From NCBI GenBank assembly GCA_001244265.2, contig CDLV01000008.1, forward strand, positions 1,178,001 to 1,242,000: a stretch of DNA of 64,000 nt, given 5' to 3'. The stretch comes from Microbotryum violaceum (Eukaryota). The notes under the pieces are model-generated. The model worked only from the letters and a program-made list of their open reading frames with translations. It searched no databases and was not told where the DNA came from. Positions within the stretch are counted from its first letter, which is position 1, and every line of letters starts with the position of its first letter. This document shows, piece by piece, positions 20,798-63,351 of the stretch. The position numbers and the translations under genes were made by a program.

Positions 20798-23700
20798 ATG
20801 GCGCCCCGATCACGCTCACCCGCGGCTGTGCCCGTGCTCAATTCAGTCTCAGTGACGGGATCAGGAACGAACCCTACAAGTCGTGGTGGTGACCAACACG
20901 CCTCCACCTCGGCCTCGACATTCACTTCCCAAGTACCGCACCACGAGAGGCGTCTATCGAACCCCGCGATGCCGGTCTCGTACGCGTATGGCGCTCCACC
21001 CGCGCCCGTCGGTTCTTCACCCCTTGGATCGCCGGCTTCGAGATCATCGAACCGGAGGGTCAACACTGGGGAATCGAACGATGCACAGAGTACGAGCTCG
21101 AATTCGAGACGAGGTGTGTCTCTACGAGCGCAGTCTTTGTTGAGGGGAGAGGTCGAGGCGGGTCAGGACGAGACCATCCTCATCACGGGTGAGGATGACG
21201 AAGAAGAAGAGGACGAGGATTCATTCGAACTCGAAAAGCAACGACACTTGGAGAGGGAAGAATCGATCGGAAGGTCCCTTGAACCCGCTGCAGTGAGATA
21301 TGCTCGTCTAGCTGAAAGAAAACGGAACACCGGTTCGGCCCTTCGACAACCGACCAATTTCGGGACGACGACGACGACCGGTGTGGCTTCGACATCGAGT
21401 TCAAAGACGAGGCCTGCGACGGACCTCAATAATACGAGCGTCAATATCGCCAATGCTTTCGCTGCTGCTGTAAAAGGAACCTCCTCGGCCGAGGGATTGA
21501 TGAGAGTTGGAGGCAAAAGGGCCACAGTGCCGGTACCAACACAGGAGACCGTTGGTCAAGAGGACGCCAGTGAAGAGGAAGATAGTGGCAAGGAGACCCA
21601 CTGTGCTGGTGGAGGGGCTGGAACCGATGGTAGTAAGAAGCGAAAGGTGAGTGCTCACAGCTCGCGCCAACAGTGAATGAATAACCGAGCTGATCACAGC
21701 ATTCGTGACGGCAGAAACGCAACTCGACTCCGAAGGATGTCTCGTTCAAGCATCGGACTGGGGAAACGACAAGCGAGGAGGAGCTATCGGAAGAGGCCCG
21801 AGCCAAGGCGAAGCGACCCAAAAAGATGACCAGCACGACCTCTCCCGAACGGGAACGCGGCAACGATGCCGAGAAGGAGCATGTGTCCGGGCAGAGGAAG
21901 ACTTCACCGAACGCAAGGAGAAAGTTGACGACTGATTCAGCCTACAAACCCACGGGCGAATCGGAAGCAACCTCGGGGGACGACATCTCTGACGACGCAA
22001 ACGCTCGTAGGAGAAAGAGCAAAGGCAAAGGTCGGGCGAGCACCGGATCGGCAACTTTGAGCGCAATTCCGATTGGGAGACGAGACAACGAGGTGTGGCA
22101 GAAGGCCAAAAAGAGAAAAGGGCGGAAGGGGAGAGGCACAGGCGAAGGCGAAGGCGTCGACGACGAAGGAGCAGGCTCGGATGATGAATATGCTCGAAAC
22201 GACGACAAGGAGCAGGATATGGGAGGCATGGAGCACGATTTTGAGCCGAACATCTCGGTCGAGCCACCGTCGGTCTCGTTCTTTCTTCGAGACAAATCCC
22301 CCTCCGATCGAACGCAGGCATCGGCGCAGAAAGAAGTGGTCACACCGCAGCTCAAGCTCGGAGGATATCCGACGTCTTCCCCGGGCACACATTCGCCATT
22401 CCAACCCTTGCGCGCCTTCACGTTTGGCTTTGGTGGTCGAGGCGCGAATGCCGCCGCACCACCTGTCGATCCTTCCTTCGACGATTTCGATCAGACTCTC
22501 AATCCTGGCCGCACTCAACCCTCACATTCCTTCAGTCGATCCCTAAGCCTCGACGACTCGCTTACTCGCGGTAGTTCCTACGATTATAGCGAAGAAGAAC
22601 GCATCGTCGCCGCGCTCGAGGAGCAGCGACGGCTCAATCAGCTTGCGACCGAGCAGTCGAAAGGTGGTGCGGGTGACGGTGTCAACAGCTTGACGGCGGG
22701 TCTGCGACGGCGCCATCGACTCAATGGCGCCCCGGCCCTCGCTGGTATTCAAGAAGAGTCCCAGCACGTGAGGAGGAGCGGGATTGGTGCCTTCCTAGGC
22801 CGACAACTGTATCGTCTCTTCGCTGGCGTGTGGCGGACAATACAGGACCCGTTGTTGGACTGGCGCAAAATCTGGCGGGCGATCGGCCTGTTGCTGCTTG
22901 GTTTGCTCGCGATGGTATATTTAGTGTGAGTACGTTCGTGAGTCTGAATACTGGAATCTTGCTGACCTTTTCATCTCGCTCACAGACCCAACTTGACGTC
23001 CGATTCACCATCCAAATCGGCGTCATCTTCCGACCATTCGCCGTCCATCATTCATTACGTGCCCTTCTTCCGGCCATCGTCGACCTATCGGGCTCCTGCG
23101 ACACCCGCAGACTCACTCGAGGAATTGATCGCTCGCCTGACGTTGCTCGAAGGAGCGATGGGTCAGCTCTCTTCGCTTACCGACGGTGACCGAACCCGCA
23201 CAAAGGCGAATAATCAACTCATGTCAAAGATAGCGGAGCAGCTCTCTTCACTCGAGCAAACCCTGTCGGCCGAGCGCCAGAACGCTGCCAAAGCATTCGA
23301 ATCTTCCGTCAAGGCCAACGCAAAGCAGAACCACGAGCTCGAGCAGACTCTGAAGGGGGCGCGTGCCGACCTCGATGCGCTCGTGACGCGCGTGCAGACC
23401 TTCCAGGACGCTCATTCAGGCGATGCAGCCGACTTGCGCAAGCTCAAGGCCAGCATCGACGCCGCGGCCAAGGACATCGCTTCGCTGGGGGGCAAGGTCG
23501 CCCAAGTCGCGCAGGACGTGCGAAAGGGTCTCGACGGGGAACGCATGGCCAAAGTCGCGCTTGAAGCCATCGAAGAACGCCTTCCACCCAAGATGGCGGT
23601 CAAAGTCAACGAGAACGGCAAAGTTGAAGTCGACGCCACGTTCTGGCAATACCTGCGAGATGCGTTCGTCGACAAGAAAGAAGTCGAGAGCATCGTCAAT

Positions 23701-24870
23701 AGCAAGGTGGCCCGAGAAGTCGCCAAGCTGCCCCTCAAGACCGGCGGCGGTGGGCCGCTGGCTCCGATCGTCATCCATGAACCGCCCAAGTGGGATGATT
23801 TCCTCGAGGCCAATGACGCTGCGCTGCGCGCTCTCGTCTCTTCCAATATCGAAGGCCGCACGGGCTCAGATGCGATCGTGACGCGCAGGGCTTTTCTCGA
23901 CACGCTGCGGCGCGAAATCAAGACGCTTAAGGCCGACTTTGAGGCCAAGGCGAACGAAAATGTCGAAAGGATCGGGCAAGAGCTTTTGCGCAAGGTGGCT
24001 AAGCAAGAAGAGATGAAGCGCAAGGAGAGTGGTGGCGACGGGATCGCATCGCATCTACACCTTCCCTTCACCGGTCACAAAGGAGGCGAGGGCGGCTCAT
24101 CGGCAACCATTCCGAGCGACAACGTGGCGGCTTTGGTCTCGTCGCTCGTCGATTCAGCTCTACTTCGCTACTCCAAAGACGTCCTCGCTCGCCCAGACTA
24201 CGCGCTCTTCACCGCAGGTGGCCGGGTTGTCCGGACGCTGACTTCGCCAACGTACGAAGCCAACCCTCTCGGGGCAAGTCGGCGAGCTCTGGCTTGGGTG
24301 ACCGGCACCGCTGGGCCGCGTGGTCGACCCCCCGTCACGGCCTTGCATCCCGACAACGCACCAGGGTCGTGCTGGCCCTTTGCCGGTTCACGTGGTCAGC
24401 TAGGGATTCAGCTTAGCCGCAGTATCGTGCCTAGCGACGTCACGATCGAGCACGTCTCCATTGACGTCTCCCTCGACGGGACTGTCGCCAGTGCGCCTCG
24501 CGAGTTTGAGGTCTGGGGTGTTGTCGAATCTCGCTCCGATATCGATCGCTTGGCTCGCTACCGATACGAGCAGCTCGAGGCGCGTCGAAAAGCGGAGGTG
24601 CAGGGGGACGACGAGGCCAGAGGTTTCGAGCTCGAGCCTCCTACCTCGATCCCTCCGACGCCCGACCACATCCTGCTAGCGATCGGCTCGTACGACGCTG
24701 CGTCGCCTGCGCCGATCCAGACTTTCCCCGTGACACCTATGGCCCGCCAACTTGCGATTCCCGTCCAAGTAGTTGTACTCAAGGTCCTAACGAACCATGG
24801 CGAGTCGGCTTACACCTGCCTGTATCGCGTCAGGGTCGGTGGCACGTCCACCACCATCTCGGCGCAATGA
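20798..24870 (+). CDS. SUN-domain (Sad1/UNC-84) nuclear envelope protein
   Basis: Disordered N-terminus, TM (AIGLLLLGLLAMV), coiled coil, then the SUN domain: PDYALFTAGG, PGSCWPFAGSRG, VTIEHV, SAPREFEVWG, NHG...YTCLYRVRV. Confidence 0.88.
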
Positions 24871-31473: not shown

Positions 31474-33135
31474 GATTGTGCTGGTCGAACAGCGGAGATC
31501 GAGAAGAACCTCAAACCGCGCGCCAAGTGGCTTGGTGAGATCGGTGAGAGAGAGCTGGACTGGTCTCCGAGGCGCGACAAACGGGGAGGGCACGACTACG
31601 GTCGACAGATGAGGGATGTGATGGTAGAAGTATGACGGTGAGAGATTCCTGGCTACTTTGTATCTGGCTGGTTTGGCGATGGTTTGGCGATGTTGTGAAT
31701 GCTGTGAAGACAAAGATTGAGGTTAAAATCGTCTCGGAGGAAGAGTGAGAGCTCGCAGATAATCGGAGCACCAAGACCATCAGCGGGTCAGACAAATAAT
31801 TTGGCGACGGGCGTCGGGCGCCGAGCGCCAGCTGATCAGTGGAGCTTCAAGCGTGCGGCAGTCATCTTTATTAGTCAGGCTCGACTACAAGCTTGCGATA
31901 GCTCCGCGGTCCTATTGCGTTTGTTTCCTGCGCGACAAATGAAGGGTTAATGATGACCGATTGCGCTCTGTTTCCACTGCTGCAGGGTAATTAGGCAAGG
32001 CAAAAAAGGCGGTCGCTCCACCGCGCCGACGCGCGGCACCAGGGTGTCCTCCATTCCTCCGAACAAGGCGTCACTTTTCCTCCGCCTCCACAGTACTCGC
32101 GCAAGTGCTTACGAGACACGAATCACGAAATCCGCCACGGGCGTTCTCAGAGGCCCGTTCGACGGTTGCGCTAGACCTACGTACGGAAATTCCTCCGATC
32201 TATTTAGGTCACCCTTTCTGACGAGGTGCGGTGTCTTGTCCCCGTACCTACCGACTACAACACGACTACGATCGGGCCAACTTCAGCCGCTTACCTCGAT
32301 TCCGACGCGCGGCCCGGCCTACTCTCATTATTATGATCTCATTCACCTATAACCTATAACCTATAAAGCTCCTCGCTGTTCTGAATCGCTGTCTCCCGAC
32401 ATACCCCAAGAAGAATGAGATGAGGTATTTATTTACGTCTCCGGAATCAGACTAGACTCAAGGATACGGACGAAGCAAGCTGCTTGGTCACCGGAGAAGC
32501 TGAGTTCGACGCTAGAGGGACGGCTGCGGCGATCTGGGGCGAGCTGGAGCAGGCTAAATCGGCTGGAGCCGGCAAGCCCAAGTAGCATCGGTCAGCTCTT
32601 CGAGTTTGAGTTTTGGTATACTTTCCCGGTCGTGCGTCTTTTACGTTATAGACTCTGCTTTCGAATACAAGCTGGGAGGGTGTGAGACTTACTAAAGTAA
32701 CTTTGGACAGATAATTAGCAAGTGACGTTTTTCTTTCCCGCGGTCACAATACTGATCAAGACACAACCGGCCTTTGGTTACATGTCTTAATTGTGCGAAC
32801 GAACTGTTCGATGAAACATTTGTGCCCGGTACAGGCCGGCCGAATACGCTTCTTTCCCGTTCAAGCGGTCCTGATGCTCGAGAGATCGTCGCCCCTGTGC
32901 GCTGCGGCTACGACGTGCCGCCTACACTTAGCGCTCCCTTGCAAAAACAGAGCGCTGACCAATTACCGGGCGCGGCGTTTAAAGTCCTCATAGAACCGAA
33001 ATTACTACCCCCTTGGCCAGCGTCGCTCCAGGGTCGTTTATAAGTGGAGGCTGAAGCAATGTCGAAGGAACGGCTTTCGACCTTGACGACCAATCCAGAA
33101 CCTCCATAATGCCAGCACCAACCTGATCTTTGATC

Positions 33136-33975
33136 TCGACTCTCCTGACCACTCGCGCGAGTCGTAGCGGAATAGTGGTTCGAGTTGCAGCATGACGAAG
33201 GACAACATTGGTGGTGTAGGAGTTGTTAAACAAATGCCTCAAGCGGTGAAAACCCAGCCTTCTGGGGAAGCCTGCAAGAAATTGATCTAAACGGAAGAGA
33301 GTCCGAACTTCTTGGTGATACACAGGGATGGTGGGCGGGATGACAATTGGGAGCTTTGCGACCCAAGCTTCTGGATGTCAGTCGGCTGCAACTGATGATG
33401 GAGCAAGTCCATTGATCGTATCAGCATACCTTTGCGACAAAGGCAAGACACTGTATAAAGACAGTTGGGGCGCGGTTGGTGCAAAGGACGGTAAAGGGTC
33501 TGCTGAGAGATATGCGATTTAGCTCGTTGCCCAACAAGGGCCCGGAGCAAAATGCCTCCACAAAGAATTTGCAGGGATCCAAGTGCAAAGTACACCGTGC
33601 AACAAGCTTGGGTGTATCGAAGCACTTACCCCGAGCTACTCTAAGCGAGCCACGTCGAGGGTTTCATAACGAGCTGCTAGCAGCTGTGAACGTCCGGCAA
33701 GATGGAACTCTCGATCAGCGACCTCGTCAGCTGGGAGGTAGTCTTGGGAGTGAGGAACGCACCTGTCCCTACAGGTGGTGAACGCAGCCGGAGAAGCTGG
33801 TAAGGAAACGTCGACAACGCAGTGAAGGCCCGAAAGGGAACGTGCATTGCGAGTACCGCCCGTGAGCCCGCGTGTGTGGGAAGCACAGCTATAGCATCCA
33901 CGGGGGAGAGAGGGTCCGTGCGCGCGAGCCTGAATCGGCGCGTCAAATCCTTGCAGCAAAAGCCGAAAAGACCAG
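33136..33975 (-). repeat. Dispersed repeat, probable LINE 3' region; uninterrupted copy of 43885-44713 + 52055-52065
   Basis: 33136-33964 matches 43885-44713 (829 bp) with only one substitution noticed. It continues gaaaagaccag exactly as the sequence after 52054 does. The element may extend left of 33136. Confidence 0.9.
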
Positions 33976-34531: not shown

Positions 34532-36577
34532 ATGGCCCGTGATCGTCTTGCTGCCATCCGCGTAAGTATTGGACCATTGCGATTTTCGAGCTGGCTCAGC
34601 TCCCTGCGAACCCCTGTCGTTGTCGGCTTGAAGGGCCTTCAAGGCATTCCTTTCGACTCATGGTCACACTCATCCTGCAAAATTCGTCTCTTTTCAGGCA
34701 CAACAAGCGGCGACAGACTCGCAACAGCAGCACCAGCAGAATCATTCGTACCCACAACAGCCGCAGCAGCAACAGCTCTACGGCGAGTACGGCCGCCCAT
34801 CCGCCGAAGATAACTATGGACGTCCCAACATGCATCGGCCGCCGCATGAGTCGAGAAACGCATCCTTCGATGATCCCGGACAGTACCAGAGCAATCCGCC
34901 CTACTCGAGGTCGCGCTCAAACTCTAGCCATGGAGGGTCCGCCGCCCGACCGCGCCCAAGTAACCCGCCGCCGGTGTCGATAGCGCCATCGAGCAACTAC
35001 ATGATTCCCAGCTATCAAGAGCCGCCACGCGACTTGAATCCGTACGAGCCCCAAGCCTACTCCCCGATCCAGGCCTCTGCTGGTCAACAACCGAAAGCAC
35101 AGAAATCGCAGTACACCCCTTTGGACCCCGTCAGAACGCGCCAACGCAGCATATCCGAGGGCAAACTCAACCCCGATCAGCGTCGAGCACTGGAGCAATC
35201 CTCGATGCCGCCGGCGCCCGTACCGGGCCAAAATTACAACTCGGATAAGACAAGAGGGTATCCAAATCCGCCACCTGAGATGAGGCCCGCACCTTCCTAC
35301 CAAAGCTTTGCGACCGAGTACGATGACTATAAGGGCAGCTCGGCAAACCTCGTCTCGAGCAAATCTCGAGCTGAAGAGTCATATGAGATGCAGAAGCGTC
35401 GCAGCAACAGCAACGACTCAAACCGCGGAGGCCCCTCGAAGAAGAAAAAGACCGTCAAGCGAGGCGATGTCGAATTTGAAGAGATGGGGCAGTTCTTCGC
35501 TGAGGTACGTGTCTCTAACGTGGCTGCCCCGTCTCGAGAGCGCATGAAAGCAGTCGCTGATGACTCCACGTGTACGCTGCACTGCTGCAGGTTTCGGATC
35601 TGCAAGAAAGATTGCGAGAGGCCAATGGGTTGGTTCAGCAGATTGCAGGGGTCCATGCTCGAATCTTGGCGCTCCCATCGACCGAAGACCCACAATCCGT
35701 CGCGCTGAACCAAGAGCTGAACGCCCTCACAACGTCGTCTCGAAAGCTGTACAACTCGCTCAAGAATCGCATCCTGGCGCTCGATCAAGGCAATGCCGGG
35801 CTCCGAGCTCTCGTACCGGCAGCCCAGTCGATGTACAATCTCACCATGGACGATGTGGATGTCCGGAACACTCAGGTGTCTGCTCTCAAAGAGCGCTTCA
35901 AGAGCGCGATCCAGCGCTACGCCGAAGTCGAACGAGACAACCGAAACAAGAACAGGTCGCGCATGGAGCGTCAAGTCATGATCGTCAACCCAGGTCTGTC
36001 GGCCCAGGAGGTCAACGAAGTGGTCCGACAAGCCGAGGAAGAGGGCTCGAACGCCGTGTTCTCCCAGGCGTTGCAGCAATCCGATGGTCGAAGGGGCTAT
36101 GCTGCTCGAGGAGCTCTTCGCGAGGTCGAGACCCGCGCCGCTGCGCTGGCTCGGATCGAATCTACGCTCGTTCAGCTCGCGCAGCTCTTCTCCGATATGG
36201 CCATCCTGGTCGAGGAGCAAGATGTGCAGATCGTCGCCATTGAAGCCAAGGCCGCCGAGGCGACGCATGACATGGAGAAGGGTCTGCAGCAAACACAAAA
36301 GGCCGTCAAGTCGGCGAGGAATGCTCGCAAGTGGCGCTGGATCTGCTTCATCATCATCCTCATCATCCTCATAGTTGTAGCCGTCGTCGTCGTCATCGAG
36401 GTCGTGCTGCCCATGATCAAGAAGAACAACGAGGCCAAGGCGAATGCGCCTGCCCCGACCACCGCTCCAGCGACGTCGACGCCGATCGCCCGTTTCGCTG
36501 CGGCCGCCGCCATCACTGCTTCGCCGACGGCTTCGGCCAACATCAGTGCTCCAACGTCAACACCAGCTAGACGGTGA
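34532..36577 (+). CDS. Plasma-membrane syntaxin (SSO-like), copy 2, with N- and C-terminal extensions
   Basis: MARDRLAAIR|intron, a long Q/P/S-rich region, MGQFFAE|VSDLQ, a SNARE helix, AVKSARNARKWRWICF plus TM, then an Ala/Thr/Pro tail. Confidence 0.85.
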
Positions 36578-41214: not shown

Positions 41215-43652
41215 ATGGCCGACTTGGCTGATGACATGTCGTTCGACATCACCGCTGCGCTCGATCAAGTCCATAGCCGAGTCCAAGCGCGCGACGACGA
41301 CGACGACGACGACCGTTCCGCAGGCGCTGCGGTTCACTCTGGCGACGCCGGCGCGTTGAGCCACGTCACGAACGCGCAGTTGCCCCAGCTCGACAGCGGG
41401 ATCCGTGGCGCAGCGGAACCAGACCACGCTGCACCAGCGTATTCCGAGCAGCCAGATCACCACCAGGACGACCAAGAAGACGCGGACGAACCTGCCTCCC
41501 CACCTGACGAGGGCGATCTCTCAAGGCCGAGCTGGGCCCAAGAACGCTCCCAGAGTCTGACCGGCCACCGCGTCGACGAGGAGGGAGGGGATGAACTCAG
41601 GGGCATTACTCTTGCCGCGGAAAGTCACAGCAAGAGTATCCCACACCATGACAACGACGGCGACGGCAACGACGATATGACGTTCCAAACAATCCGCCTC
41701 GACCAGTACACGCTCGCGTCCCCAACACCAGCCGCGGACGGTCCTTCCGAGATTCCTTCCGTCTCAGGCGCAAGATTAACCATGTCTCCCCCGCTTGCCC
41801 CGCTCGCAGCACCCCCATCCGCCACGCCATCACCGACACTGAGCGCAAGTGCAGACTCTTCGTTTGCACCCGAAACGACCACAACAGCTGCCACCTCAAA
41901 GCAGGATCTTGACGACGAAGAAGAAGAGGTTCAAGACGAAACCAACGCCGAGTCACAGGCAGAGGCCGCGAGGGACGACTCGCCAAAAGCTTCCTCCACG
42001 CCCGCCGACGGAGATGCTACTCCCGTCGATGCAGATGGTACTCCATCCAATTTGGTAGCCAAAAGGAAAGCATCTCTTTCTGGTCGACCTATCGCGGTCG
42101 CCTTCGATGGCCAACCAGCGGGTACTTCAACCCCGCCCGTTGCCATCGCGACTTCCCCGACCAAGGCTAAGCGACTGGGCACTCGAGTCCCGACCGAGAT
42201 CCAAAAAATAATGAGCATGACGCGGCAACGCGACCTACCACCCAAAGACAAACTCGAGGAGGAGCGACATCTCAAGCAACTCGAAGAAATGAGAGCAGCC
42301 GCGAAAGAAGCAGAACGAAGACGACAGTTTCAGCTTCAAGCCGCTGCAATGGCACGAGCGACTCGCATCGCGGCTGCTCATTCCGTTTGGGAGAACCAAG
42401 TGCTCCCTAACTGGCGAGCCGTGACACACGAGTCGGCCGAAGGTCGAGAACTGAGAAAGCTGTGGTGGGATGGAACGATGCCTGTGCGCTGGCGTGGTCG
42501 ATTGTGGAGCCTGTGCATTGGCAACGGGCTGGCCGTGAGCAGGACTTCGTTCGCTGGGATTTTATCCCAGGCCAGGCGCGGCTTGAACGATGGGACCTTC
42601 TTTAAGGAGACGATGGCTGCGCTGGAAGAAGATGTGCAGGGAACGCTGCGGAACCTCAAGCTGTTCCAACGCGGAGGGGCAATGCACGAGGACCTGATCA
42701 ATCTGTTGCTCGGCTATGTCGTTTACGCCAGCAAAGCGACGGGCCAAAAGCCTTGTTATGTGAGTCGCAGACAAGTAAAGATCAGACACACTCAAGGACG
42801 GCTCAGCTGAAACTTCACTTCGGTCTTTTACTTTTACTCTTAGCCTCCCGGTCTCGCCTGTCCAGCCGCGATGCTGTACGTGTTGCTCAGGAACAACACA
42901 CACACACACCCCCCAGCCCGTTTGAAACAATGAAAATGACCAGTCCATCCATGACCGTATAGCCTCATCAATATGTCTGTCGCCGATGCCTTCATCTCCC
43001 TCGTGAACCTCGTCAACAAGAGTTTCCTCAAGAGCTTCTATGGTGATAATCCCGACGAGGTTCGTCCCCCGAAACCTATGATATCTAATATCTGATCCTC
43101 CGTCCTGAACGTTCCCTGACAAACCGCTTCTACTTCTCGTAGCCGGATGCGTACTATCGCATTTTCGACACCCTCTTGGCCGACAACATGCCCAAAGTTT
43201 ACGAGAACTTTTACAAGGAGGTCGTACGACCGTCGCTGTACCTCCACCCGTGGCTCACGTCCATGTTCGTGCAATTCCTGCCGCTCGACCTGAGCACGCG
43301 CTTGTTCGACGTCTTCCTGCTTGAAGGCGACGCGTTCGTCTTCCGAGTCGCCCTCGTCCTACTACAAATCCTCGAACCTCGGTTATTCAACCCCGTACAG
43401 TCCGAGCTCGACGAGGTGTTCCGTGGCAAGGATCGTGGGGCCATTGCCGTCGTCAGGAGAGAGAGGATCGGGAGCATCCTTTTGGGCGGTGGAGGCGAGA
43501 CCGAGGAAGAAGTCCGCGATGTGCTTGTTGAGGAGGTGTACACAGAGATGGGGTGTACGGAGGATCGAGTGTTTGAGCTGCTTGGCCAGCAGGACTGGAA
43601 GGAGGAGACGTGGCACAGGCTCGTTGAACGAGAACTTCCCGAGGCCGATTAG
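41215..43652 (+). CDS. TBC (Rab-GAP) domain protein, TBC1D12/14-like
   Basis: TRQRDLPPKDKLEE, LRKLWWDG...RGRLWSLCIGN, and WLTSMFVQFLPLDLSTRLFDVFLLEGDAFVFRVAL. Confidence 0.82.
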
Positions 43653-44713
43653 AGTTTTTCCGTTTTCGTGTTCTGAGTACGTCCGTAGTTTCTCAGGAGG
43701 TTGTTGTAGAATGAAGCTAGGCAGAGTCCCAATCAATAATGAGTGCTACGCTAAGGCAAATAAGCTGGGAAAGATACGGAGCGTCCGGCTGGGCCACTAC
43801 GACCTGCGAGGTGCGATGTTGATACAGGGGACAGGCGGGCGGGGCCGGCGCCCAGTGCTATTTTGTGCTATTTCGGGCACTGATTCGACTCTCCTGACCA
43901 CTCGCGCGAGTTGTAGCGGAATAGTGGTTCGAGTTGCAGCATGACGAAGGACAACATTGGTGGTGTAGGAGTTGTTAAACAAATGCCTCAAGCGGTGAAA
44001 ACCCAGCCTTCTGGGGAAGCCTGCAAGAAATTGATCTAAACGGAAGAGAGTCCGAACTTCTTGGTGATACACAGGGATGGTGGGCGGGATGACAATTGGG
44101 AGCTTTGCGACCCAAGCTTCTGGATGTCAGTCGGCTGCAACTGATGATGGAGCAAGTCCATTGATCGTATCAGCATACCTTTGCGACAAAGGCAAGACAC
44201 TGTATAAAGACAGTTGGGGCGCGGTTGGTGCAAAGGACGGTAAAGGGTCTGCTGAGAGATATGCGATTTAGCTCGTTGCCCAACAAGGGCCCGGAGCAAA
44301 ATGCCTCCACAAAGAATTTGCAGGGATCCAAGTGCAAAGTACACCGTGCAACAAGCTTGGGTGTATCGAAGCACTTACCCCGAGCTACTCTAAGCGAGCC
44401 ACGTCGAGGGTTTCATAACGAGCTGCTAGCAGCTGTGAACGTCCGGCAAGATGGAACTCTCGATCAGCGACCTCGTCAGCTGGGAGGTAGTCTTGGGAGT
44501 GAGGAACGCACCTGTCCCTACAGGTGGTGAACGCAGCCGGAGAAGCTGGTAAGGAAACGTCGACAACGCAGTGAAGGCCCGAAAGGGAACGTGCATTGCG
44601 AGTACCGCCCGTGAGCCCGCGTGTGTGGGAAGCACAGCTATAGCATCCACGGGGGAGAGAGGGTCCGTGCGCGCGAGCCTGAATCGGCGCGTCAAATCCT
44701 TGCAGCAAAAGCC

Positions 44714-44852
44714 CACCTCAGGCGTACCTTCAAAGTTACAGCCTAGACCGCGCGCGCGAGCGCGCCAAAATCCTCGATCCTTAGCGGGTTTCACACTGGG
44801 GTTGGTCGCCCAATACCCGGATAGCCAGGACTCCCCATCCCGGGGCCGTCAA
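44714..44852 (+). repeat. Left terminal inverted repeat
   Basis: cacctcaggcgtaccttcaaagttacagcc...gtcaa; 5 mismatches against the right TIR by eye. Confidence 0.92.
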
Positions 44853-45699
44853 GGGGAAAGCAGTGTGTGTAGTCCAACTACGAGATTGTTGCGATGGATC
44901 CAAGCCCCTAAAAATACTTCCCAAGCTGCCATGTGATGCCACTTCGACTATATTCGTCTTGTCAGAGTCTCGTGGCCTCCGAGCTGAGTCTGCAGTGCCA
45001 CCCTGCGCCAGGTGCTTCACGGTCACGTGCAACCCATGGTCGAAGTTGCGCGACCAACGGCCAGTCGCCCACAAACCGCACGTGCCTGTTCGTCTCCTTC
45101 CACATTGCGAACGGCAGCCGTACATCGACACTAGATCTTCCGACACGATGACTCGCCGTTTCATCCCTGGACAGTTCAGACCACGCAAGCTGAGGCCGCA
45201 GGACCTAAACGATCAGCCCAGCGCGTCCTGCGCCAAGGTCAAGGTCTACGATCCCTTTGGTGGAGTGGACACCGTTTCGATAGACCAAGACCCACCGCAT
45301 CATCAGCGTTATCATCATCGACGTCGAGTTCGGTACAGACTCCCACTCCCCTAGTCCCACCCTTACCGGACCCGGCATCCGCATTTGCTGCCGCTGCGTT
45401 CGAGTATAGCGACTACTTTGGGGTAGACGAGGATGACGGCGCCGGAGAACGCTCAGATCTCGACGACAGAGCCATGCACGAAGGTGATGGTGGTTAGAAC
45501 AAAAATTTCGCCAACGCACACTTCCTCCTATCCTCGAACCCTGCCGACTGGACGTCTACGATTCACGCAACATGTCTCAGATGACGCTGGACCGCCTCAG
45601 GAATGAGCTCCATCCCATCGTCACCCTCATTCATACCTTTGAAAGGGTGGACAGGACATACCTCGCTTTCCTTGTGCGCGAGGCGGCATTCAGCAAGCA

Positions 45700-48600
45700 G
45701 GCACGACCTTGACTCTGGGTGCAGTACATGTCGTTTGTGGCGTGCCCAAAATCGCATCTCAATCCGCGCATCATTGAGGTCGAGAACGGATTCAGGATCG
45801 CCGACGAGGTGGCCCCGCCGCCGCGCGACCGCAAAGGCACACATGTCCTTTCCATTCTGGTCCATGGCGCCACCAGTCGTAAGCACTTCCGAATCTTTCT
45901 TCAGCTTTATCTGCTGGGGAACGGGGATCCTGTGTTTCCAATGGCTCCACTTGGCACAGGCTTTCCCCACGAGGTCTCTGTCTGTCCCTGATCCATTAGT
46001 GGTGATCCCCCAATCACATACGCCGAACGACTGGCTCAGACTGGCCTTATGAGTGCAACTGCCTCGAGACCGCTTTCACATTCCAAGCTCTACAAATGGT
46101 CGAATCTTGCTGGGTTGTTGATCCCTCGTCCGTTGATGGGATGACCCAAGGGATGGATGATCATTATGGAAGATGCGGATGGGGGATTCAGGTGGGCTGG
46201 CGTCTCATTAGATTGTAAATTGAGGTCAAATTCAGCGCGATTCATGAGTCTTGTGTGGGACGGTGCCAATCTAGTCCCCTGCATGCGCACTTCTCTAGGG
46301 CCGCGAGCCTCGAACACAATAGCAACGAGCAGCTCGACGAGTTCCGAGCATTGGCCGCACACGAGACCGGATCCGACAATCGCCTCTTCCACATAAAGGG
46401 TTCATTTGCTGACAAGTGTCCTGCAGAATTTGGACCAACACATTGAAGCTGCCAAACCGGGCACCTACACTTGATCATTTGTTTGCGCATGATGGAAGCT
46501 TTCAGCAATGGCGCAACCAGGCAGCCAAGTATGACCCACAAGCGACCACGCCGGACTTGTTCATCAGCGCGGCAGAAACTTCGGAAATGAAAGAGGTGGT
46601 CGAGCGGGCGCCGACACCGTCCAAGAAGGTACGTTGTTCAGCATGATAGTCCATATAACACCCTGCTCTGCCCTGATCCTCTAACACCTCCACTTACAAG
46701 CATGCACAGAATCTTAGAAAGTTGCTGACGATGGCGCTGAAAAGCTCTGGCCGGGAAAATCGACGCGGCTCTTGTGGCGTGCGTGTGTCGGCATAACGCG
46801 GTTTCCGAGACGTCCAACAGGCTTGAGAGGAGCGGCGGTACGTACGTATGACTGTACCATCTTCGCAAGATCGTTGCAGTGTTTAATTTCTGTCCTCCTC
46901 ATTGGGGAGGCTCGACATTGTAGGCTGTACTATGCATTGGCTCTGATCAAGCACGTCTCAGAACAAGAACAGCCCGAAGCCAGAATTGGGGTCTTGTAAA
47001 ACATTGCCTGCAACCTCAAGCATCGCCTACAGAAGGCGCGTATAGGTATCTAATTCACTCTTGTGGTCGGTCGAATCGTCTGAACTTACTCGTTTCTCGC
47101 CCTGTGTAGAGCGATGATTAGTGCCTAAACGAGCCCTAGTTAGTGCCTAAATTGCCCCCCGTCTTGAATTTGCCACAAGTGTCTTGGCGCTTTCGCGCAT
47201 CAATGGCCCTGTCAAGTCGAGCTGGACCCTCAACTTTTTCCCAACAAGTTCGGCTGCACCGATGGCGAAGGCGTCTAGGTATCACTTACTGCAGGTTAAT
47301 TAGATTAATCCTGCGCTTCAAACATGTCGTAATTACTCGGCGCTTGCCCCCACCCCTACCCAGATCTAATTTGCAATCGGCCGCCCACGCGTTTCACCCC
47401 AAGACACAGTGTTCAGCACCTCTTCTTGCCTTCGCCTAGTTCATTCTCATCTCATTATACCTTACGTGGCACAAGAGAAGGGTTCTCTGCTACCCTGTAG
47501 GGTTTTTCTGCTTCCATCCTCAGAATCACCAAAATCGAAAAACGCCAAAATCGCCAAGGGGTACCACTGCACTTTTTGCCGGTTTCTGAAGGCCAAAAAC
47601 GTTAAGCGTTTCAAACGGACCACGAGTTCCCTATTACCTCCCCAACATAGGCTCTTCATGCCTCGAGTCATCCGCACCTTCAGGAGAGCGAGGTTCAGAC
47701 CTTGATAGGGGCCAAAGGTGAATGTGCCGGGTTTAACCGTCAAGTGCGCGTGTTTCGAGGCCGAAAGTCGGAAAAAACTACAACGAAAAGTTCGGGCACA
47801 GTGAATATGGTCGCGAGGGTATTCTATTGAACCGCCCCGGAAGTTTGGAACAGCAGTATCTTCTTTCTATCTCCCACCCAGTCCGACCGAGTGCAAAACG
47901 TCAAGACTAATCTTGGTCTCGGGCATTTCGAGGCTGAAAGTCGGGAAACACTACAACGAAAAGTTCGGGAACGCTTAATGTGGTCAAGAAAAGAGAATAA
48001 TAGACTTCATTGAACTGTTCAATAGGTTTGGAACAGCGGTACATGTTTTCTATCTCCCACTCAGCCCGACCGAGGACCGAGTGCACAAACGTCGAAACGG
48101 ACCTTGGTCTCGGAGGTTTCGACGGTGAAAGTCGGGCAACACTACAACGAAAATTTCGGGCTCGGGCACCGTAAACATGGCCACGAAGCTACCTGGATAT
48201 ATTTTATTGAAACTTCCAAGAAGTTTGGAACAGCACTACATGTTTTCTATCTCCTTCCCAGCCCGACCGAGGGCAAGAACGTAACCTTGGTCTCGGGTGT
48301 TTCGACGGTGAAAGTCGGGGGACACTACAACGAAAAGTTCGGGCACAGTTAATATGGCCACGAGACTATCATCATAGAATTCATTGAACCGTGCAAGAAG
48401 TTTGGAACAGCAGTACATGTTTTCTATCTCCCACCCAGCCCGACCGAGGGTTCATGCGAGGATGCCGAGTCGGGAGGTCTTTTGCCCCCCCCCCCCACCC
48501 CCCCCCCCCCGCTAAAGTCAAACGCAGGGTTCCGCAAGGGTTCAGTTGACACCATGACATGACGGTAAGCCGGGTCAGGGGGGAGTACTCGACGAGCTGC

Positions 48601-51060
48601 CTTGAGTCAAGCCCTCAAATACCATCTCATACCTTGGGTAGGGGCGGTAGGCGCAGCGTGCCGTTGAGTTCACCCGATGCTCTTATTTTGAGCTCAATCG
48701 AAAGTGTCCTTTGAAGGCCGGCATGAGGCTCAACTTGATTGCTAAGCACGGTGGTGAAATTCAAATCAATATTATTCCAATGTATCTATGAAACTGGCCG
48801 GTGAATCATGAACACTGAGGTCGCTAGCCCGATAAAGGGGCGATTGGCCCGATTGCGCGTACTTCAATCCACAATGTCATGTGCTAGACTTTCTGAGGTG
48901 CATCTAGTACAGCGCAGTGATACCTGCACTTGGACACAATCGCCGATCGGCGATGCCCCAACCTCATCGCGCATACAAACCCGAGCTAGACGCGTCTTGA
49001 AGAGTGAATAATAATAGGAGCGGAGTCGAGTGGCGTTGTCCCTTTTCAAGCAGCGTGCCTCTTCCGTATGCACTTATTTTCTCGGTCACGCGGTCTTGTA
49101 TGCCAAAACCAAAAAAAAAGTCACACTTATAGAGCAAGAATTTGTTCTCACCGGTCACTGGAAGGTTCCGCCATTAAATGATTACTTCGAGAGCGCTCGG
49201 CGATTCCGCACTGGCGTCCTTCACGAAGAGTTTTCAAAACACAGAAGGCGAGCTAAGGCAGAATAAGCCAGATTGAAGTCGTTACGTAGTAACCTTGGCA
49301 GCTACAATTGTCGCTCTGGTGTTTCGTACTTGCCCCCTGTGCGAGACGGTCCGCCGGTCTCAAACGATCCCTCCCGAGTGGAGTGCGTTGCAAATGCTTG
49401 TGACTGATCAGACCAAAAGATGGCTTCTTCGCGTTGAATGTATGTTATAGCCACATTACATTCGTTAGAAATAACGAGTGTGATACGTTGCTGATGCGTC
49501 AAAGCGTTCTTGAACTACATTTTTCACATCGACGGTCGGCTAGATTCGTCTTGGGCGAGCCGGTCGGAGAGCGGAAATCGCTAAGGCGCAAACCCCCCGT
49601 TAGCATGGACAATCATCTTGAGAAAGAAGTTTCGGCCTGTTGAACCAAGTCTTCGGGTTGCTTGGCATGCCGACGTCTTCTTGAGCCCGTTGTGTTTGGA
49701 GTGCACCGGCTAATCGAGATAGTCGAGAGAGGGCAGAAAGGGATCAGGGTCAAGAGTCCAGATCGAACGGAATCGGTCCGACACGGGACGCGACGCGACA
49801 AACAGCAGTCACCAAACGCTTGCTGCACCAATTGACAGTACCAGATGCTGAGATCTCGAAATGTCAATTTCTTATCGTAAACGTCGCCGGCTCGCAAGGG
49901 TCAGCAAGAACGAAGAGGGCGAGGAGCATAGTCGAAGCGCGTGGTCAAGTTGGAATCTCCACCGCGCACCTAGCTGGATCGGTACATTGACTCCTCGAAT
50001 GCCGCATGACCAGTTACGACTTTGGTGAAGCGCTTGACTATATCAAGTTCCTGGTCAGTTCCAAGCCAGCCTATGCGTTCAGAGAAAGCCTCTGCCCCAG
50101 CGGAACAGCGGAAGGCGCGATCTTCCTTGCGCTCCACACAGCTGGAGCCGATCACAGCGAATGTCTCGATTTGGAAGTTCAACGGATAGTAGGCGCTCTA
50201 AGAAGCACAGTATGTAAGTAAGCGTGTTGAACAGACACGAAGAGACTCCACAAGAAGCTCAACTCACAGTATCTTGGCATTGTGAGGCAAGTTCTTTATA
50301 AGCTTGTGCAGCTGCCTTGTCAGACGCCGCCGCTGTACAGAGTCACGTGAAGGCAATGGTGGATACAAAATTGTCCACATCATCGGCACCAATGGCTGTC
50401 GTATCTTCCTCCAGCGCCGGAATGTCCTCACACTCGGCTCGCCCGCTTTCTGTCGCGTTGATCCGAGTCCACAACTCGCTGGCGATCGGTTGTCGTTCTA
50501 TCAGGCTGACTGGGACTGGGGAGTAGGAATAGCAGCAATGAGGCAATTTAGAGCACTCAACACGGAACGAGGAAGGTTTGACATCTACTTACGATCAATA
50601 CCATCATCGTTAGGTAGCTTCTCGAGAAGTACTGGCTCGTCCGGAAGGTGTCCCACGTGCTCAGCGCCCTTCGTTTCCTGACCGACCACCTTTGACTGGG
50701 TGACGCGTTGGAATCGCTCAGCCGAATGTTCTCGTCGCAATAGTACCATTCCATGACGGCACGGCAAGGATCTGCTGAAACGCACAGTGACGGTCCTTCT
50801 TTCTCTTCCTTGGGGATAGAGCGCTTAGGTGGCTTGCTTTGCACGCGCCCGATCATGCCTTATGGAATTCGAGCATTTGCGGGTAGGCATTCCTTGCGAG
50901 CGCCGGCGGAGGTCGGAGGCGGGCGCAATTGCTCGGCAGTGGTGCCTGAAGACCGTTGATCGAATGTTGAACAGGAGCTGGGATTGGGATACTGGCCACG
51001 CGCAGACTGATTGGACATGGAAAGACCAGGCATCGCGTTGGCGGTTGAGACGGGACTGAA
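45700..51060 (+). pseudogene. Decayed CxC-KDZ transposase, split by an insert at ~47280-48840
   Basis: Fragments in shifting frames, in the expected order: AERLAQTGLMSATASR/ETAFTFQAL (CxC-like), KCPAEFG, LFAHDGSFQQWR, LVACVCRH, IGVL*NIAC, AFAHQWPCQ...FGCTDGEGV*, and after the insert RLARLRVL and GIRAF. The outer limits are approximate. Confidence 0.8.
47748..48450 (+). repeat. Four diverged ~165-190-bp tandem repeats
   Basis: Units start at ~47748, 47913, 48104 and 48287. They share tttcga.g..gaaagtcgg, ctacaacgaaaa.ttcggg, gtttggaacagc and tttctatctcc...ccgaccgag. Confidence 0.9.
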
Positions 51061-51907
51061 CAAGAAATCCATCGTGCCTTCCATGGAAGATACAACTCTC
51101 AGAAGCTAGGAAGATTTTGTAGATTGATGCAAAATTGTCGCCCTTCTTTTTTGTCCTGGACAAAAACAGAAAATAAAAAGGGGCGCTTCTTCTTCTTTTT
51201 ATCTATTTTCTGAAGCTACTTCAGGTCCGAGAGTAGTCAGTCGATACTTCCAGCAGGAGCAATCGAAGCCAGGGTCGATCGATTGTCGTATACTACTAGT
51301 CACGTGGGCTGAGCTGGGCAAGAACGACGCGACGTACGTGTATTTTGGACCAGTATCGAACGGAGATTAGGCACCTAGAAAGGTAATATCACAACAGAGG
51401 TGAAATAGAAGAAGCCTAGGGATAAGTACGATGGCTTTGGGTGGTCAGACGTTAGTCTGACAGCATGCAAGCCAGTTCAGCTGGGAGGTGAGCTGAGCTA
51501 TTAGCAAGCGACGGTCAACGCCAAAGTCGCGGGGAAAACGTACGCGGCGCGACAGCGAGCATACACCTCTGGAACTCACTGATATGTTTTGGGCAGCTTT
51601 TGTACAACGCTGGTCGAAAAGTGCGCGCACAACGAGGGGAAAAGAGGCAGAGGCGAACACTGGGGCATCTTGGACGTCCGAAAAGGGCGCGCGCTGGACT
51701 GCGCTGGCGCGCGGCCGACACATGACGTGTGCTAAGCTGTGTAGCACAAGCCACGGCCACTGTCTGCCAAAAAGTTTGCGCGGTTGAGATGTCCCGAATC
51801 ACCAGTGTTCCACATTATTTTAAAATTGGGAAACATCATAACTTTTGAGTACTGGGTATAGCTTGATCAACGAAGTCATGTCGGTCCGTATAATGCATCT
51901 GCCGCTG

Positions 51908-52046
51908 TTGACCGCCCCGGGATTGGGAGTCCTGGCTATCCGGGTTTTGGGCGACCAACCCCAGTGTGAAACCCGCTGAGGATCGAGGTTTTTGGCGCGC
52001 TCGCGCGCGCGGTCTAGGCTGTAACTTTGAAGGTACGCCTGAGGTG
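51908..52046 (-). repeat. Right terminal inverted repeat
   Basis: ttgacc...ggctgtaactttgaaggtacgcctgaggtg. Confidence 0.92.
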
Positions 52047-52149
52047 CAAAAGCCGAAAAGACCAGCAGTGTCGAAGCGGGCACCCAAGCATTCAGTATCG
52101 GAATTTTGCGATACCTAGTAATCGACACAGAGCTCTGTTGGACAGATCT

Positions 52150-53111
52150 TCAGACTGGGCAGCCAGATCCTGTTCCACTCGACGTTTTTTGGTCGTGCGG
52201 TCGTGGGCAGAGGCCGGGGAGATCGACTTGGACACGGCGGCGGGGGCGGCGGTGGTAACGGTGGAGGCTTGCGGGGCACGTGACGTGGGGGTCCCTGGGG
52301 CTCGACGCATGACGGGCCGGGCAGTGCTGGGTGGCGTGCGAGGTGCTCGCGCAGGACTTGCACGCCGGGGCGACGGGGCAATCCTTACGGACGTGAGCCG
52401 CGGAACGGCAGAAGACGCAGTGGCGCATGCCACCGGTGATCCTCAGTGGGATTCGCTCAGTGACACCGTCACGAGCAATAGAAAGTGAGGCAGGGGCAAA
52501 ACATCTACATCCTTAAGGGCAAGGATAAAGTCGTACACCCCAGAGATGTGTTTCGTCTTTCCAATGTATTGGATGCGACGACGGAGGACCGTGGCGTAAG
52601 CAGCGATCTGCTCATCGAATAGGCAGAGGCCCTCGGGGTCAGAGAAAAAGCCCGTAAGGGTGCATTGTACAACACCTCCTCTAGTAGAGCTGTACAGCTT
52701 CTCGAATTTGCACAGAGTCTTGCCAACAGTGAGGCCGTTGGCCACCAGGGTGTCGAGATCGGCGGCCTTGGGAAAGCGGAGGCCGCGCTGACCCTTGATG
52801 ACGCATGGCATTGCGCCGGTAAGGCCAGGGTAGTATTTGTCAAGCGCGAGGAGGACTTGCTCGACCGAGGTTGAGGGTGGGGTGTTGATGATGACACAAT
52901 TCTCGATGTTGTGCATCAGTGGATGGGCGGCGACGGCAGTCGAGGCGTTGGCGGTGGCGTTTCCGTGCTTCGCAACGGAGCGGGCGCCGACCGCGGCGGA
53001 GTATGATTTGGTGGTGGTGGCGGGGGCTTGGCCGGGAGGATCGGGAGGGTCAGGGCGAAGAGGTGGTATAGCAGCATGGCTGGCGTTGTTGTTGGTGTTG
53101 TTGTTGTCCAT
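52150..53111 (-). pseudogene. LINE ORF1 (gag-like) with two CCHC zinc knuckles; frame broken near 52450
   Basis: The N-terminus reads PDPPDPP...KSYSAAV. The knuckles CVFCRSAAHVRKDC and CKSCASTSHATQHC (both CX2CX4HX4C) are in a different frame. Confidence 0.8.
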
Positions 53112-55776: not shown

Positions 55777-56711
55777 TCATACTAGTGGTTCAATGTCGCC
55801 AGTAGATTCGGCTTCGGATTCAGTGTCAGAGGGAATACCGTGCCATTCCTCTTCCTCCTCAGCCCCAGCGATCTGTTCTCCCTCCGAGCCGGCATCCTGG
55901 TTCCCCGAATCCTCTGCCTCGGATGATGGGGTCGACAGGGCGACTTGTGCCAGCGAAGCTTCCTTTATTTGATCGAGGCGGTTCAGTTCCTTCTCAATCT
56001 TGCGTACAAGAGCCTTGCTTGCCGCTTTGATCTTGTCGTCGCCCTTGGTCGAAATTTCGTCGAGCTGGGTGAGCAGCTTGACCAGCGCGTCCTCGTAAGC
56101 GTGAAAAGCGGCGTTGTGAGAGTCGTAAGCGAGCTTCCCGTTGCACGCGTGTAGCTTGGTAGCGATTTCCACCTTGGAGCGTTGCGCAAAGTGTCGGCAA
56201 GGGCCTCCAGCGCAGCCAAGGCCTGGCGACGGTAGAGTCGAGCTCGGAAGTGTTTCTGCAAGGTCGTGGCGGCACCTTCTTTGGTTGGACCATACATTAC
56301 AGGCTCGGTGATGGGGATTGAGATGCCACACCTGGTCGGAGAGACAGGCCGCTTGGATGACGAAGCTTCTTGTGAGATGTGCGCTTGTCGCGTCGAAGAT
56401 CCTTACACCTGCTCGGGCTCGGGCTCCTGCTCCGACTCCGATTCCTCGGCAGAGTCGTACTCATCCTCGCGCTCGTCGCCGTCGTCGTCATGGTGAACGT
56501 AATGATCCCTTTGTCGTGGATCCCAGGAGGGTGAGTAGCTCATCCGTCGAGCCCATTCTTGCTCTCTCAGTTGCTGTTCGTACGCCAATCGTTGTCTCTC
56601 GCGTCGTTGCGCCTCCATCGCAAATGCTCGGCGGCGTTGTTCGTGGTAAAGCTCGCGCTGACGTTGAGCTTGGGTCGAGCCGAGACGGTCCCGCAGCATA
56701 GATTGCAACAT
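55777..56711 (-). pseudogene. BAG-domain co-chaperone gene with a premature stop and a frameshift
   Basis: IQ-like AATTLQKHFRARLYRR and BAG core FHAYEDALVKLLTQLDEISTKGDDKIKAASKALVRKIEKEL. In-frame TAA at 56403-56405 and a frame change near 56190. The true start is uncertain. Confidence 0.65.
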
Positions 56712-62125: not shown

Positions 62126-62250
62126 AGATATCCATCTTATCTCCTAGGATATCTATCTATCAGATATCTAGGCCTCTATCTAAGATGTCTGACTAAGATG
62201 GGAGATAGTTAGATAAGGGCCAGAGCCCAATTTTCTTAAATAGATATCTG
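62126..62250. promoter_or_regulatory. GATA-site cluster upstream of the racemase gene
   Basis: 14 GATA/TATC cores counted in ~125 bp, including GATAAG on both strands (cttatc at 62136, gataag at 62212). Confidence 0.6.
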
Positions 62251-62431
62251 GTATTTGCGAGATGGTCTTCCCTAATGCGGAACCCTGGTCACTTGCATGC
62301 CCTCAGAAGCTCAGACGGTCATCGTCGGCTGAGTTCTGAACCTGACGATCGCTTCACCCGCTCGTCTCGATCGACACTCTCGGGCTCTTTGGCTCTTTCG
62401 CTCTCACCCATCTCGCAGCGCTTCCCTCACC

Positions 62432-63351
62432 ATGGGTTCCTCCACCCGATTGCCGATCCTGATCGTCAATCCAAACACGACGGAAACGATGACCAAGTCG
62501 GTCGAGGCGATGCTCTCTCCTTTGCTCACCTATACCTCGTTCGTAAGTCGGGCGCCGAACCTCCGTCCCCTCCGGTTCTTGGCGATACGCATTTGCGATT
62601 GCTAATCCCTTTCGCTTGTCCGTTCCCTCCACTCTACAAATATCGTGACCAAAAGCCCAAACCAACCTATTTCACGTGTCCATATCCTGGTATTGCGTCA
62701 ATCAACTCGTCCCACGACTGCCACCAATCAGCCACGATCATTCTCCCCCACCTGATCCCGTTGCTCGCATCGCATTCGGCCGTCTTGATCGCATGCTATT
62801 CGCATCACCCGCTCGTGCAGCAACTGTTGCCCTATACTAAAGGCGATAAAGCCGTGCTCGGTATCTTTGAGGCTTCAGTATTGAGTTCGATAGCGAATCT
62901 GACGTCGACACTAGGAATCGAAGGCCAGGGCGGACGGGATCGGGACCCACAAGCGGCCATTAAGAGCAAACGAGCTCGATTTGGGATCGTTTCAACGGGC
63001 AAAGGGTGGGAGCTGCTGTTGACACAAGCCGTCGATACCTTCCTGGGTACCTCGGACAATTCGGCCCTTTTCGCCGGCGTCGAAACAACGGGCTTGACCG
63101 CCGTCGAATTGCACGACTCGAGTCCCGAAATCGTCAAGGAACGGACCAAGGATGCGGTGAAGAAATTGTTGAGGAAAGGGGATGTTGGAGCGGTCTGCTT
63201 GGGTTGTGCCGGGTTTGCTGGAATGGATCAGACCGTCCGGGAGGCTGCGGTTGAGGAGTTGGGTGCGGCCGAGGGGGAGAGGGTCAAGATCATCGATGGT
63301 GTCAAGGTCGGGTATTTCATGCTCGAAGGCATGGTCAGGACAGGTCTCTAG
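62432..63351 (+). CDS. DCG1: Asp/Glu/hydantoin racemase family protein (allantoin racemase/DCG1-like), one intron
   Basis: ILIVNPNTTETMT, LIACYSHHPLV, GIFEAS, FGIVSTG..WE, VCLGCAGFAGM and IIDGV. Confidence 0.82.

Follow-up and report, generated by a model that had tools for sequence, protein, structure and literature searches.

Is the insertion that interrupts a repeat on contig CDLV01000008.1 of the anther-smut fungus Microbotryum violaceum (NCBI GenBank assembly GCA_001244265.2) a working transposon of the superfamily known as Kyakuja-Dileera-Zisupton (KDZ), a broken one moved by a protein made elsewhere, or the outcome of some other rearrangement of repetitive DNA? The window analyzed here is a stretch of 64,000 nucleotides (positions 1,178,001 to 1,242,000 of the forward strand, with all coordinates below counted from its first base), in which a preliminary description had proposed a fully delimited KDZ transposon with 139-bp terminal inverted repeats (TIRs), an 8-bp target-site duplication (TSD), and an empty site. 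The element spans 7,333 bp (44714-52046) and is very probably a non-autonomous, internally truncated, and mutated KDZ cut-and-paste DNA transposon of the anther-smut Microbotryum. It adds a new and defective member to a known kind of transposon; the kind itself is not new.

Termini and target-site duplication

Both junctions of the element can be read directly. On the left, caaaagcc (44706-44713) is followed at 44714 by CACCTCAGG..., and on the right, ...CCTGAGGTG ends at 52046 and is followed by the same eight bases (52047-52054). Direct reading thus confirms to the base the ends given in the preliminary description, its flanking pair of caaaagcc, and the lone 8-mer at 33957-33964. The 139-bp TIRs also stand, with 134 of 139 bases matching between the two arms and a sharp end to the likeness, which ceases abruptly past base 139. 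The terminal 30-mer has two exact sites in the window, one at each end of the element and in inverted orientation, as compared to none expected from 100 shuffles.

With the TIRs fixing the ends, a perfect 8-bp match of the flanks would occur by chance with a probability of about 1.5e-5 (by arithmetic). Both the TIRs (139 bp, 134/139) and the TSD are of the Zisupton/Dileera type, the latter as a perfect duplication together with an uninterrupted paralogous target, for a single insertion (n = 1). An internal TIR-like 20-mer at 48709-48728 was rejected, as its local alignment score of 20 was lower than those of all 20 shuffled-TIR controls (21-25).

KDZ homology of the coding remnant

The plus strand of the left half of the element carries the remnant of a transposase gene. 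Residues 1-568 of P0024, a 931-aa KDZ transposase of Microbotryum intermedium with a Pfam KDZ score of 195.8 bits, map in order onto 45148-47272 (tblastn, E 9e-113). The remnant shares 39-76% identity per aligned block with its M. intermedium relatives, and the N-terminal, CxC1-like, and KDZ regions follow one another in the same order. Among the proteins compared, P0024 and P0007 of M. intermedium are the best intact relatives.

The Pfam scan of the element itself covered 91 of its 99 stop-to-stop open reading frames (ORFs) of at least 50 aa, those lying partly or wholly outside 44784-51814 being left out. A single ORF of the 91 (46413-46643) gave a KDZ match, which scored 13.4 bits where the cut-off is 26.6 (E 0.063) and is too weak to establish KDZ by itself, and no other transposase domain was found by Pfam in these ORFs at E ≤ 1. 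Translated pieces of the element match gene models of M. silenes-dioicae (98-100% identity in the aligned part) and of M. saponariae (89-91%). All six of these sibling models, three from each species, match PF18758 (E 7.5e-4 to 9.8e-11), and two of them, P0005 and P0006, do so above the curated cut-off (38.3 and 42.2 bits against 26.6). A HMMER search with P0001 returned 18 proteins at E ≤ 0.001, of which 11 were scanned with Pfam; these long relatives have PF18758 above the cut-off in 10 of 11 cases, and CxC1 is listed in 6 of 11, above its cut-off in 5.

The tblastn alignment and the Pfam matches of siblings and relatives therefore make the KDZ assignment sound, with the domain present in the window only as a remnant. 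The KDZ identity claimed in the preliminary description is borne out by P0024 and by the six siblings, but the profile match of the element's own ORFs is weak. For the region ahead of the KDZ domain, P0024 can be aligned over its full length with P0013, which bears CxC1, and the alignment runs across the CxC1 stretch of the latter. No CxC domain was found by Pfam in the window ORFs, the siblings, or P0024, and where the window aligns to the CxC1-like stretch of P0024, other residues stand in place of the cysteines (PPPRDRKG vs. RPCECEG).

Inactivation of the transposase gene

The alignment to P0024 places four in-frame stops within aligned conserved blocks (ARP*LWVQY near 45710, VCP*SIS near 45990, TES*KVADDG near 46715, and VL*NIACNLKH near 46997, where the asterisk is the stop). 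The frame shifts at 46063 and at 46440/46443 without room for an intron, and a further frame change (46628 to 46697) could accommodate one. The intron at 45879-45960 is skipped by a spliced contig of run X16 (the runs are introduced below), and a 27-residue alignment gap agrees with it. The motif CRHD is invariant among ten long KDZ proteins and reads CRHN in the window; similarly, the aspartate of DIACN is kept in nine of the ten (P0022 has N), and the window has a stop followed by NIACN in place of (H/Y)DIACN. The two aspartates changed to asparagine are putative catalytic residues, in keeping with the KDZ literature.

Homology to KDZ transposases ends directly after GCTDGEG at 47272. The remaining residues of P0024 (569-931, about 360 C-terminal residues) have no counterpart in the 64-kb window (tblastn at E 10, with matches below 1 shown). 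With four stops, frameshifts, CRHN, stop plus NIACN, and residues 569-931 missing, the element is not autonomous, and the preliminary description needs correcting on its integrity, as it is a truncated, pseudogene-bearing copy and not a functional transposon. Contigs from the runs differ from the window by small indels, among them one added G at 46180 and another at 46903; some of the frameshifts are therefore private to the window copy.

Hypermutation resembling repeat-induced point mutation (RIP) was considered as the main cause of this decay. The RIP index (TTG+CAA)/(TCG+CGA) is 0.98 in the element vs. 0.55-0.74 in host DNA, the RIP control ratios are also raised in the element, and the observed/expected ratio of CpG is 1.02. 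RIP was rejected as the main cause because the depletion of TCG is only weak.

The insertion site and repeat R1

The element lies within one of two copies of a repeat, R1, found by comparing the window with itself (Table 1). The stretches 33131-33964 and 43881-44713 are 99.76% identical across 834 bp, and copies A and B are apart by one substitution and one single-base indel. The insertion point is 19 bp from the right end of copy B (19 of 845 bp), a position so near the end of R1 that it may reflect either chance or a target preference. On the right, the two copies match for 11 bases only (gaaaagaccag; 33965-33975 and 52055-52065) before they diverge, because the R1 unit ends there, 11 bp beyond the duplication.

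Contigs of four public runs (X1, X13, X15, and X16, of which X15 and X16 are, by guess, only presumed to be RNA runs) were mapped to 43100-53000. R1 is multi-copy: position 43942 is covered by 10 contigs in X1 and 13 in X13, and the word depth of R1, summed over contigs, is 670-1750 vs. 49 in the unique flank of X1 (14-35 times the unique flank). The site at 33957-33964 is therefore a paralogue and not an allele, as it lies in a second copy of a multi-copy repeat. The empty site of the preliminary description accordingly holds in that the 8-mer occurs once with contiguous flanks, but it belongs to a paralogous R1 copy, and its matching right flank is short (11 bp) because R1 ends there.

An uninterrupted junction (...CAAAAGCC to GAAAAGA(C/A)CA, followed by mutual divergence) is carried by six contigs in X1, two in X15, and two in X16. 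With ten such contigs in three runs, the uninterrupted form is evidently the normal state of R1. The empty site and the uninterrupted contigs reveal the target in its form before insertion.

R1 itself is a dispersed repeat of about 845 bp with sharp ends, and contigs of X16 are spliced inside it on the minus strand (44433-44511, GT..AG). It has no Pfam match and no open frame after removal of two contig-supported introns. The R1 pair was also considered as the long terminal repeats (LTRs) of a retrotransposon. This was rejected because the 9.9 kb between the copies carries host genes (syntaxin/SNARE and RabGAP-TBC); no matching short duplications were seen beside copies A and B on reading the window.

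A truncated family and its relatives in Microbotryum

The six sibling gene models, from M. silenes-dioicae and M. saponariae, all terminate at one common break, ...GCTDGEGVQ. Because this break is shared between two species, the element has the look of a deletion derivative, non-autonomous and dependent on a transposase supplied in trans, and it combines intact termini and a TSD with a dead gene, a break shared by 6/6 siblings, several contigs, and a depth above that of the unique flank. The contigs that cover the KDZ part depart only slightly from the window sequence, in X1 by 6 differences in 869 bases, and their depth is several-fold that of the unique flank.

When proteins of 512-1630 aa were searched with P0024, 14 matched at E ≤ 1e-10. 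Eight of them, at 67-91% identity to P0024, all come from M. intermedium; the remaining six, found in M. silenes-dioicae and M. saponariae, reach just 37-42% identity and represent other KDZ families. In the annotated proteomes of the closest species, as covered by this word-indexed search, the family of the element is therefore seen only as truncated copies. For M. intermedium, the gene models of KDZ transposases number at least nine, with lengths of 552-931 aa and 67-91% identity to P0024. Its full-length family, with P0024, P0038 (920 aa), and six shorter models, holds the closest protein relatives of the remnant and differs from the window copy in its open frames, complete KDZ domain (195.8 bits), and long C-terminal region. 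A separate family of about 10 models (178-1,111 aa, seven of them at least 982 aa) forms one 90% cluster in M. silenes-dioicae.

The right half of the element holds a second transcription unit, ORF2, on the minus strand. A contig of X16 is spliced within it at 50196-50267 and 50516-50592 (GT..AG, minus strand). At three other loci, spread over two species, the numbered gene next to a KDZ model is a gene model of ORF2 (g00415/g00416, Chr1-3g02509/02510, and Chr1-1g00982/00983), and this recurrent adjacency indicates that the two-unit layout belongs to the element. In the window, the spliced frame of ORF2 runs for about 140 codons before it meets a stop. The four ORF2 gene models match no Pfam family at E ≤ 1, and in the Atlas there was no usable feature match, with all structural matches at TM < 0.35 and a poor model (pLDDT 0.31). 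No TET/JBP dioxygenase was found at E ≤ 1 in the 91 ORFs or the four ORF2 models, a search that a heavily decayed copy could escape.

Probable transposition in trans and alternative explanations

The TIRs, the exact 8-bp TSD, and the clean empty target together form what we infer from the superfamily to be the signature of DDE-type cut-and-paste transposition with an 8-bp stagger. Taking the observed ends, TSD, empty target, KDZ homology, and inactivating lesions as the starting point, a KDZ transposase would bind the 139-bp TIRs and excise the element from a donor site. Integration would then proceed by staggered cleavage of the 8-bp target caaaagcc, 19 bp from the end of an R1 copy, and repair of the stagger would duplicate the target. 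The transposase could be supplied in trans by an autonomous relative, either lost or unannotated, or by another KDZ family of the same genome. We infer action in trans because the resident gene is dead, with its stops and frameshifts, lost acidic and cysteine residues, and no C-terminal third.

The insertion is younger than the origin of R1 copy B. Moreover, the near-identity of the R1 copies, 10.7 kb apart, and the few contig differences at high depth suggest that the insertion and spread of the element were recent.

Several points weigh against this interpretation. The 8-bp TSD of the family rests on one insertion, and the TIRs are linked to a KDZ transposase by position only. The KDZ match of the element's own ORF is sub-threshold and no better than those of 11 unrelated sub-threshold families (E 0.012-0.22). 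The depths given were summed over contigs and do not stand for copy numbers, and gene conversion between nearby R1 copies could mimic youth. In addition, the absence of an autonomous partner is drawn from annotated proteomes and a word-indexed search, and an unannotated, repeat-masked full-length copy could exist.

The positional link leaves some room for a TIR shell from another superfamily with 8-bp TSDs (e.g., hAT), in which the KDZ remnant and ORF2 would be captured or nested passengers and a non-KDZ transposase would mobilize the whole. The KDZ gene, truncated and dead, has no functional tie to the TIRs, and TSD length alone cannot tell superfamilies apart. We nevertheless regard such a shell as improbable, given that no other transposase domain turned up in the 91 ORFs scanned with Pfam (E ≤ 1), that the KDZ remnant begins about 300 bp inside the left TIR, and that the KDZ-plus-ORF2 layout at three more loci in two species fits the element's own genes. 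The TIRs of hAT elements are typically much shorter. Mobile KDZ elements of Cryptococcus, on the other hand, have TIRs of 139-241 bp and 8-bp TSDs (PMC12810828). More improbable still is an origin without any transposition, by segmental duplication or by recombination between repeats, in which the 8-bp match would be incidental. The flanks are indeed repetitive (R1, and a high-depth repeat from 52130), and the insertion is unusually close to the end of R1; however, the perfect 8-bp direct repeats exactly abut the 139-bp inverted termini, removal of the element and one 8-mer restores an uninterrupted R1, and the ten contigs from three runs carry that same uninterrupted junction.

The preferred interpretation of a dead copy moved in trans must also be set against an autonomous, currently active KDZ transposon whose gene merely looks broken through dense introns. 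Fungal genes do have many short introns, and here the intron at 45879-45960 is contig-supported and the frame change from 46628 to 46697 has intron room. Against this, the stops in ARP*LWVQY, TES*KVADDG, and VL*NIACNLKH lie in well-aligned conserved blocks, the frame changes at 46063 and 46440/46443 lack such room, conserved aspartates have become asparagine, and no part of the window supplies the 360 C-terminal residues. For the window copy, an autonomous element is thereby refuted, and we give the idea hardly any credence.

Within the trans-mobilization of a defective KDZ element, a bolder and rather unlikely scenario is that the derivative lost its C-terminus before the split of M. silenes-dioicae and M. 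saponariae and stayed mobile without a cognate autonomous copy in these genomes. If so, it may have been cross-mobilized by a KDZ family of about 40% identity (e.g., the P0012/P0043 group, whose models are about 1,000-1,100 aa long), or the conserved, spliced minus-strand ORF2 may aid its mobility, and KDZ would be an overlooked class of TIR elements in Microbotryum.

Comparison with known KDZ elements

The preliminary description assumed that fungal KDZ elements are defined mostly from protein domains, a premise that is now outdated, as Cryptococcus KDZ1-3, Puccinia Dileera, and Laccaria Kyakuja elements have published ends of base precision, with TIR lengths and TSDs given for several fungal KDZ families (PMC12810828; 10.1101/2024.08.15.608186; PMC12730594). 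In Cryptococcus neoformans, KDZ1 is about 11 kb long with 241-bp TIRs, 8-bp TSDs, and further genes of unknown function (PMC12810828; Huang et al. 2024, bioRxiv 10.1101/2024.08.15.608186). KDZ2 (about 9.2 kb) and KDZ3 (about 10 kb) have TIRs of 139 and 169 bp, respectively, and both have 4-8-bp TSDs (PMC12810828, PLoS Genet 2026; 10.1101/2024.08.15.608186). All three encode CxC1 + KDZ transposases, are intact, and were caught transposing in the laboratory (PMC12810828; 10.1101/2024.08.15.608186). Going by their published description, they resemble the Microbotryum element as large basidiomycete elements with long TIRs and TSDs of up to 8 bp, and differ from it in being intact and mobile, whereas the Microbotryum copy is 7.3 kb, dead, and truncated.

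Zisupton makes 8-bp TSDs, and so does Zisupton-1_PGr, a Dileera element found in Puccinia (Kojima 2025, PMC12730594). Zisupton-1_PGr and the TET+ Dileera families known from Puccinia and Melampsora include a gene for a TET/JBP dioxygenase (PMC12730594). These elements share with ours a Pucciniomycotina host, the KDZ superfamily, and 8-bp TSDs, but their TET/JBP gene was not found at E ≤ 1 in the Microbotryum element. Kyakuja-1_LB and Kyakuja-2_LB of Laccaria bicolor have 5'-CA...TG-3' termini, 7-bp TSDs, and no TIRs (PMC12730594). The Microbotryum element is likewise a KDZ element that starts with CA and ends with TG, but its 8-bp TSD and 139-bp TIRs set it apart from Kyakuja, and it fits the Zisupton/Dileera pattern. 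Our guess is that it may belong to the Dileera clade, because the CxC1-KDZ proteins of Cryptococcus (bioRxiv 10.1101/2024.08.15.608186) and Zisupton-1_PGr are both reported there.

No description of KDZ elements in Microbotryum was found in the literature, as judged by titles and the opening parts of abstracts, with supplements, Repbase, and Dfam outside this scope. In the portions covered, the classes listed by surveys of transposable elements (TEs) in Microbotryum are Copia, Ty3, Helitron, and generic TIR ones, with no mention of KDZ. In PMC12730594, the sole mention of Microbotryum concerns RIP. "Zisupton" is absent from the main text of PMC10502011, where TIR elements form one class and M. 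intermedium is said to be without TIR elements, in contrast to the at least nine KDZ transposase models in its proteome. The supplementary TE libraries (PMC10502011; Table S1/Data S1 of PMC12730594; the Cryptococcus supplementary information) may hold the family of the element or clade labels.

General knowledge of KDZ transposition is unchanged, because the literature already has fungal KDZ elements that are mobile and fully delimited. What is now given is a set of base-precise ends, a TSD length, and an empty target for a Microbotryum KDZ family, in a genus that serves as a model of how TEs accumulate on non-recombining mating-type chromosomes. A genome-wide census of KDZ copies could start from these termini, as could tests of whether, and by which transposase, defective copies are still mobilized.

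Other features of the element and the window

Table 1. Coordinates of the element, its parts, the R1 copies, and neighboring genes in the 64,000-nt window.
Feature	Coordinates	Strand	Basis
Left target-site duplication, caaaagcc	44706-44713		direct read; equals 52047-52054; single copy at 33957-33964
Left TIR, 139 bp, starts CACCTCAGG	44714-44852	+	inverted-repeat pair I1, 96% complementary
Decayed CxC1-like + KDZ transposase gene remnant	45148-47272	+	tblastn vs. P0024, blocks in three frames
Breakpoint and unassigned DNA	47273-47820		KDZ homology ends after ...GCTDGEG; siblings in two species end there
Tandem array, 183-bp unit x 3.4	47821-48450		Tandem Repeats Finder, 74% matches, score 627; self-BLAST agrees
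Second transcription unit, ORF2	49285-51084	-	gene models P0034-P0037, 53-100% identity per block
Right TIR, 139 bp, ends CCTGAGGTG	51908-52046	-	inverted-repeat pair with left TIR
Right target-site duplication, caaaagcc	52047-52054		direct read
Uninterrupted target 8-mer in the other R1 copy (paralogous empty site)	33957-33964		8-mer once
Repeat R1 copy A, about 845 bp, uninterrupted	33131-33975		self-comparison of window
Repeat R1 copy B, left part, insertion host	43881-44713		final 19 bp of copy B are 52047-52065
Sugar transporter	5669-6658	-	Pfam on long ORF
Iml1	13135-16083	-	Pfam on long ORF
Sad1/UNC	22966-24867	+	Pfam on long ORF
Syntaxin/SNARE	35564-36574	+	Pfam on long ORF
RabGAP-TBC	43143-43649	+	Pfam on long ORF
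BAG domain	55783-56460	-	Pfam on long ORF
Asp/Glu racemase	62209-63348	+	Pfam on long ORF

Downstream of the end of KDZ homology, the tandem array is followed by a C-rich run at 48485-48509 (a 13-bp unit repeated 1.9 times). A contig joint from 48044 to 50764, which skips 2,719 bases and occurs once each in X1 and X13 (side 30), may mark shorter copies of the element and is too weak for use. Near the right end, contigs of X1, X13, and X16 have "GA" in place of a 106-bp stretch rich in A/T and homopolymers (51115-51220), which is therefore an indel between copies. In three runs, a 32-bp part (51190-51222) is also matched by an AT-rich contig of high depth, possibly organellar DNA. Scans found no Rfam family and no tRNA.

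A second high-depth repeat, R2, begins at 52130, 65 bp past the end of R1, and reaches at least 53000. Loose contig ends precede 52130 in X1, X13, and X15, and the depth of R2 is 1,570-1,890 vs. 49 in the unique flank; its ORFs have no Pfam match. With R1 and R2 beside it, the KDZ element is thus part of a small repeat nest that lies between the RabGAP-TBC gene and the next genes. The window as a whole is ordinary gene-dense fungal DNA with 56% G+C.

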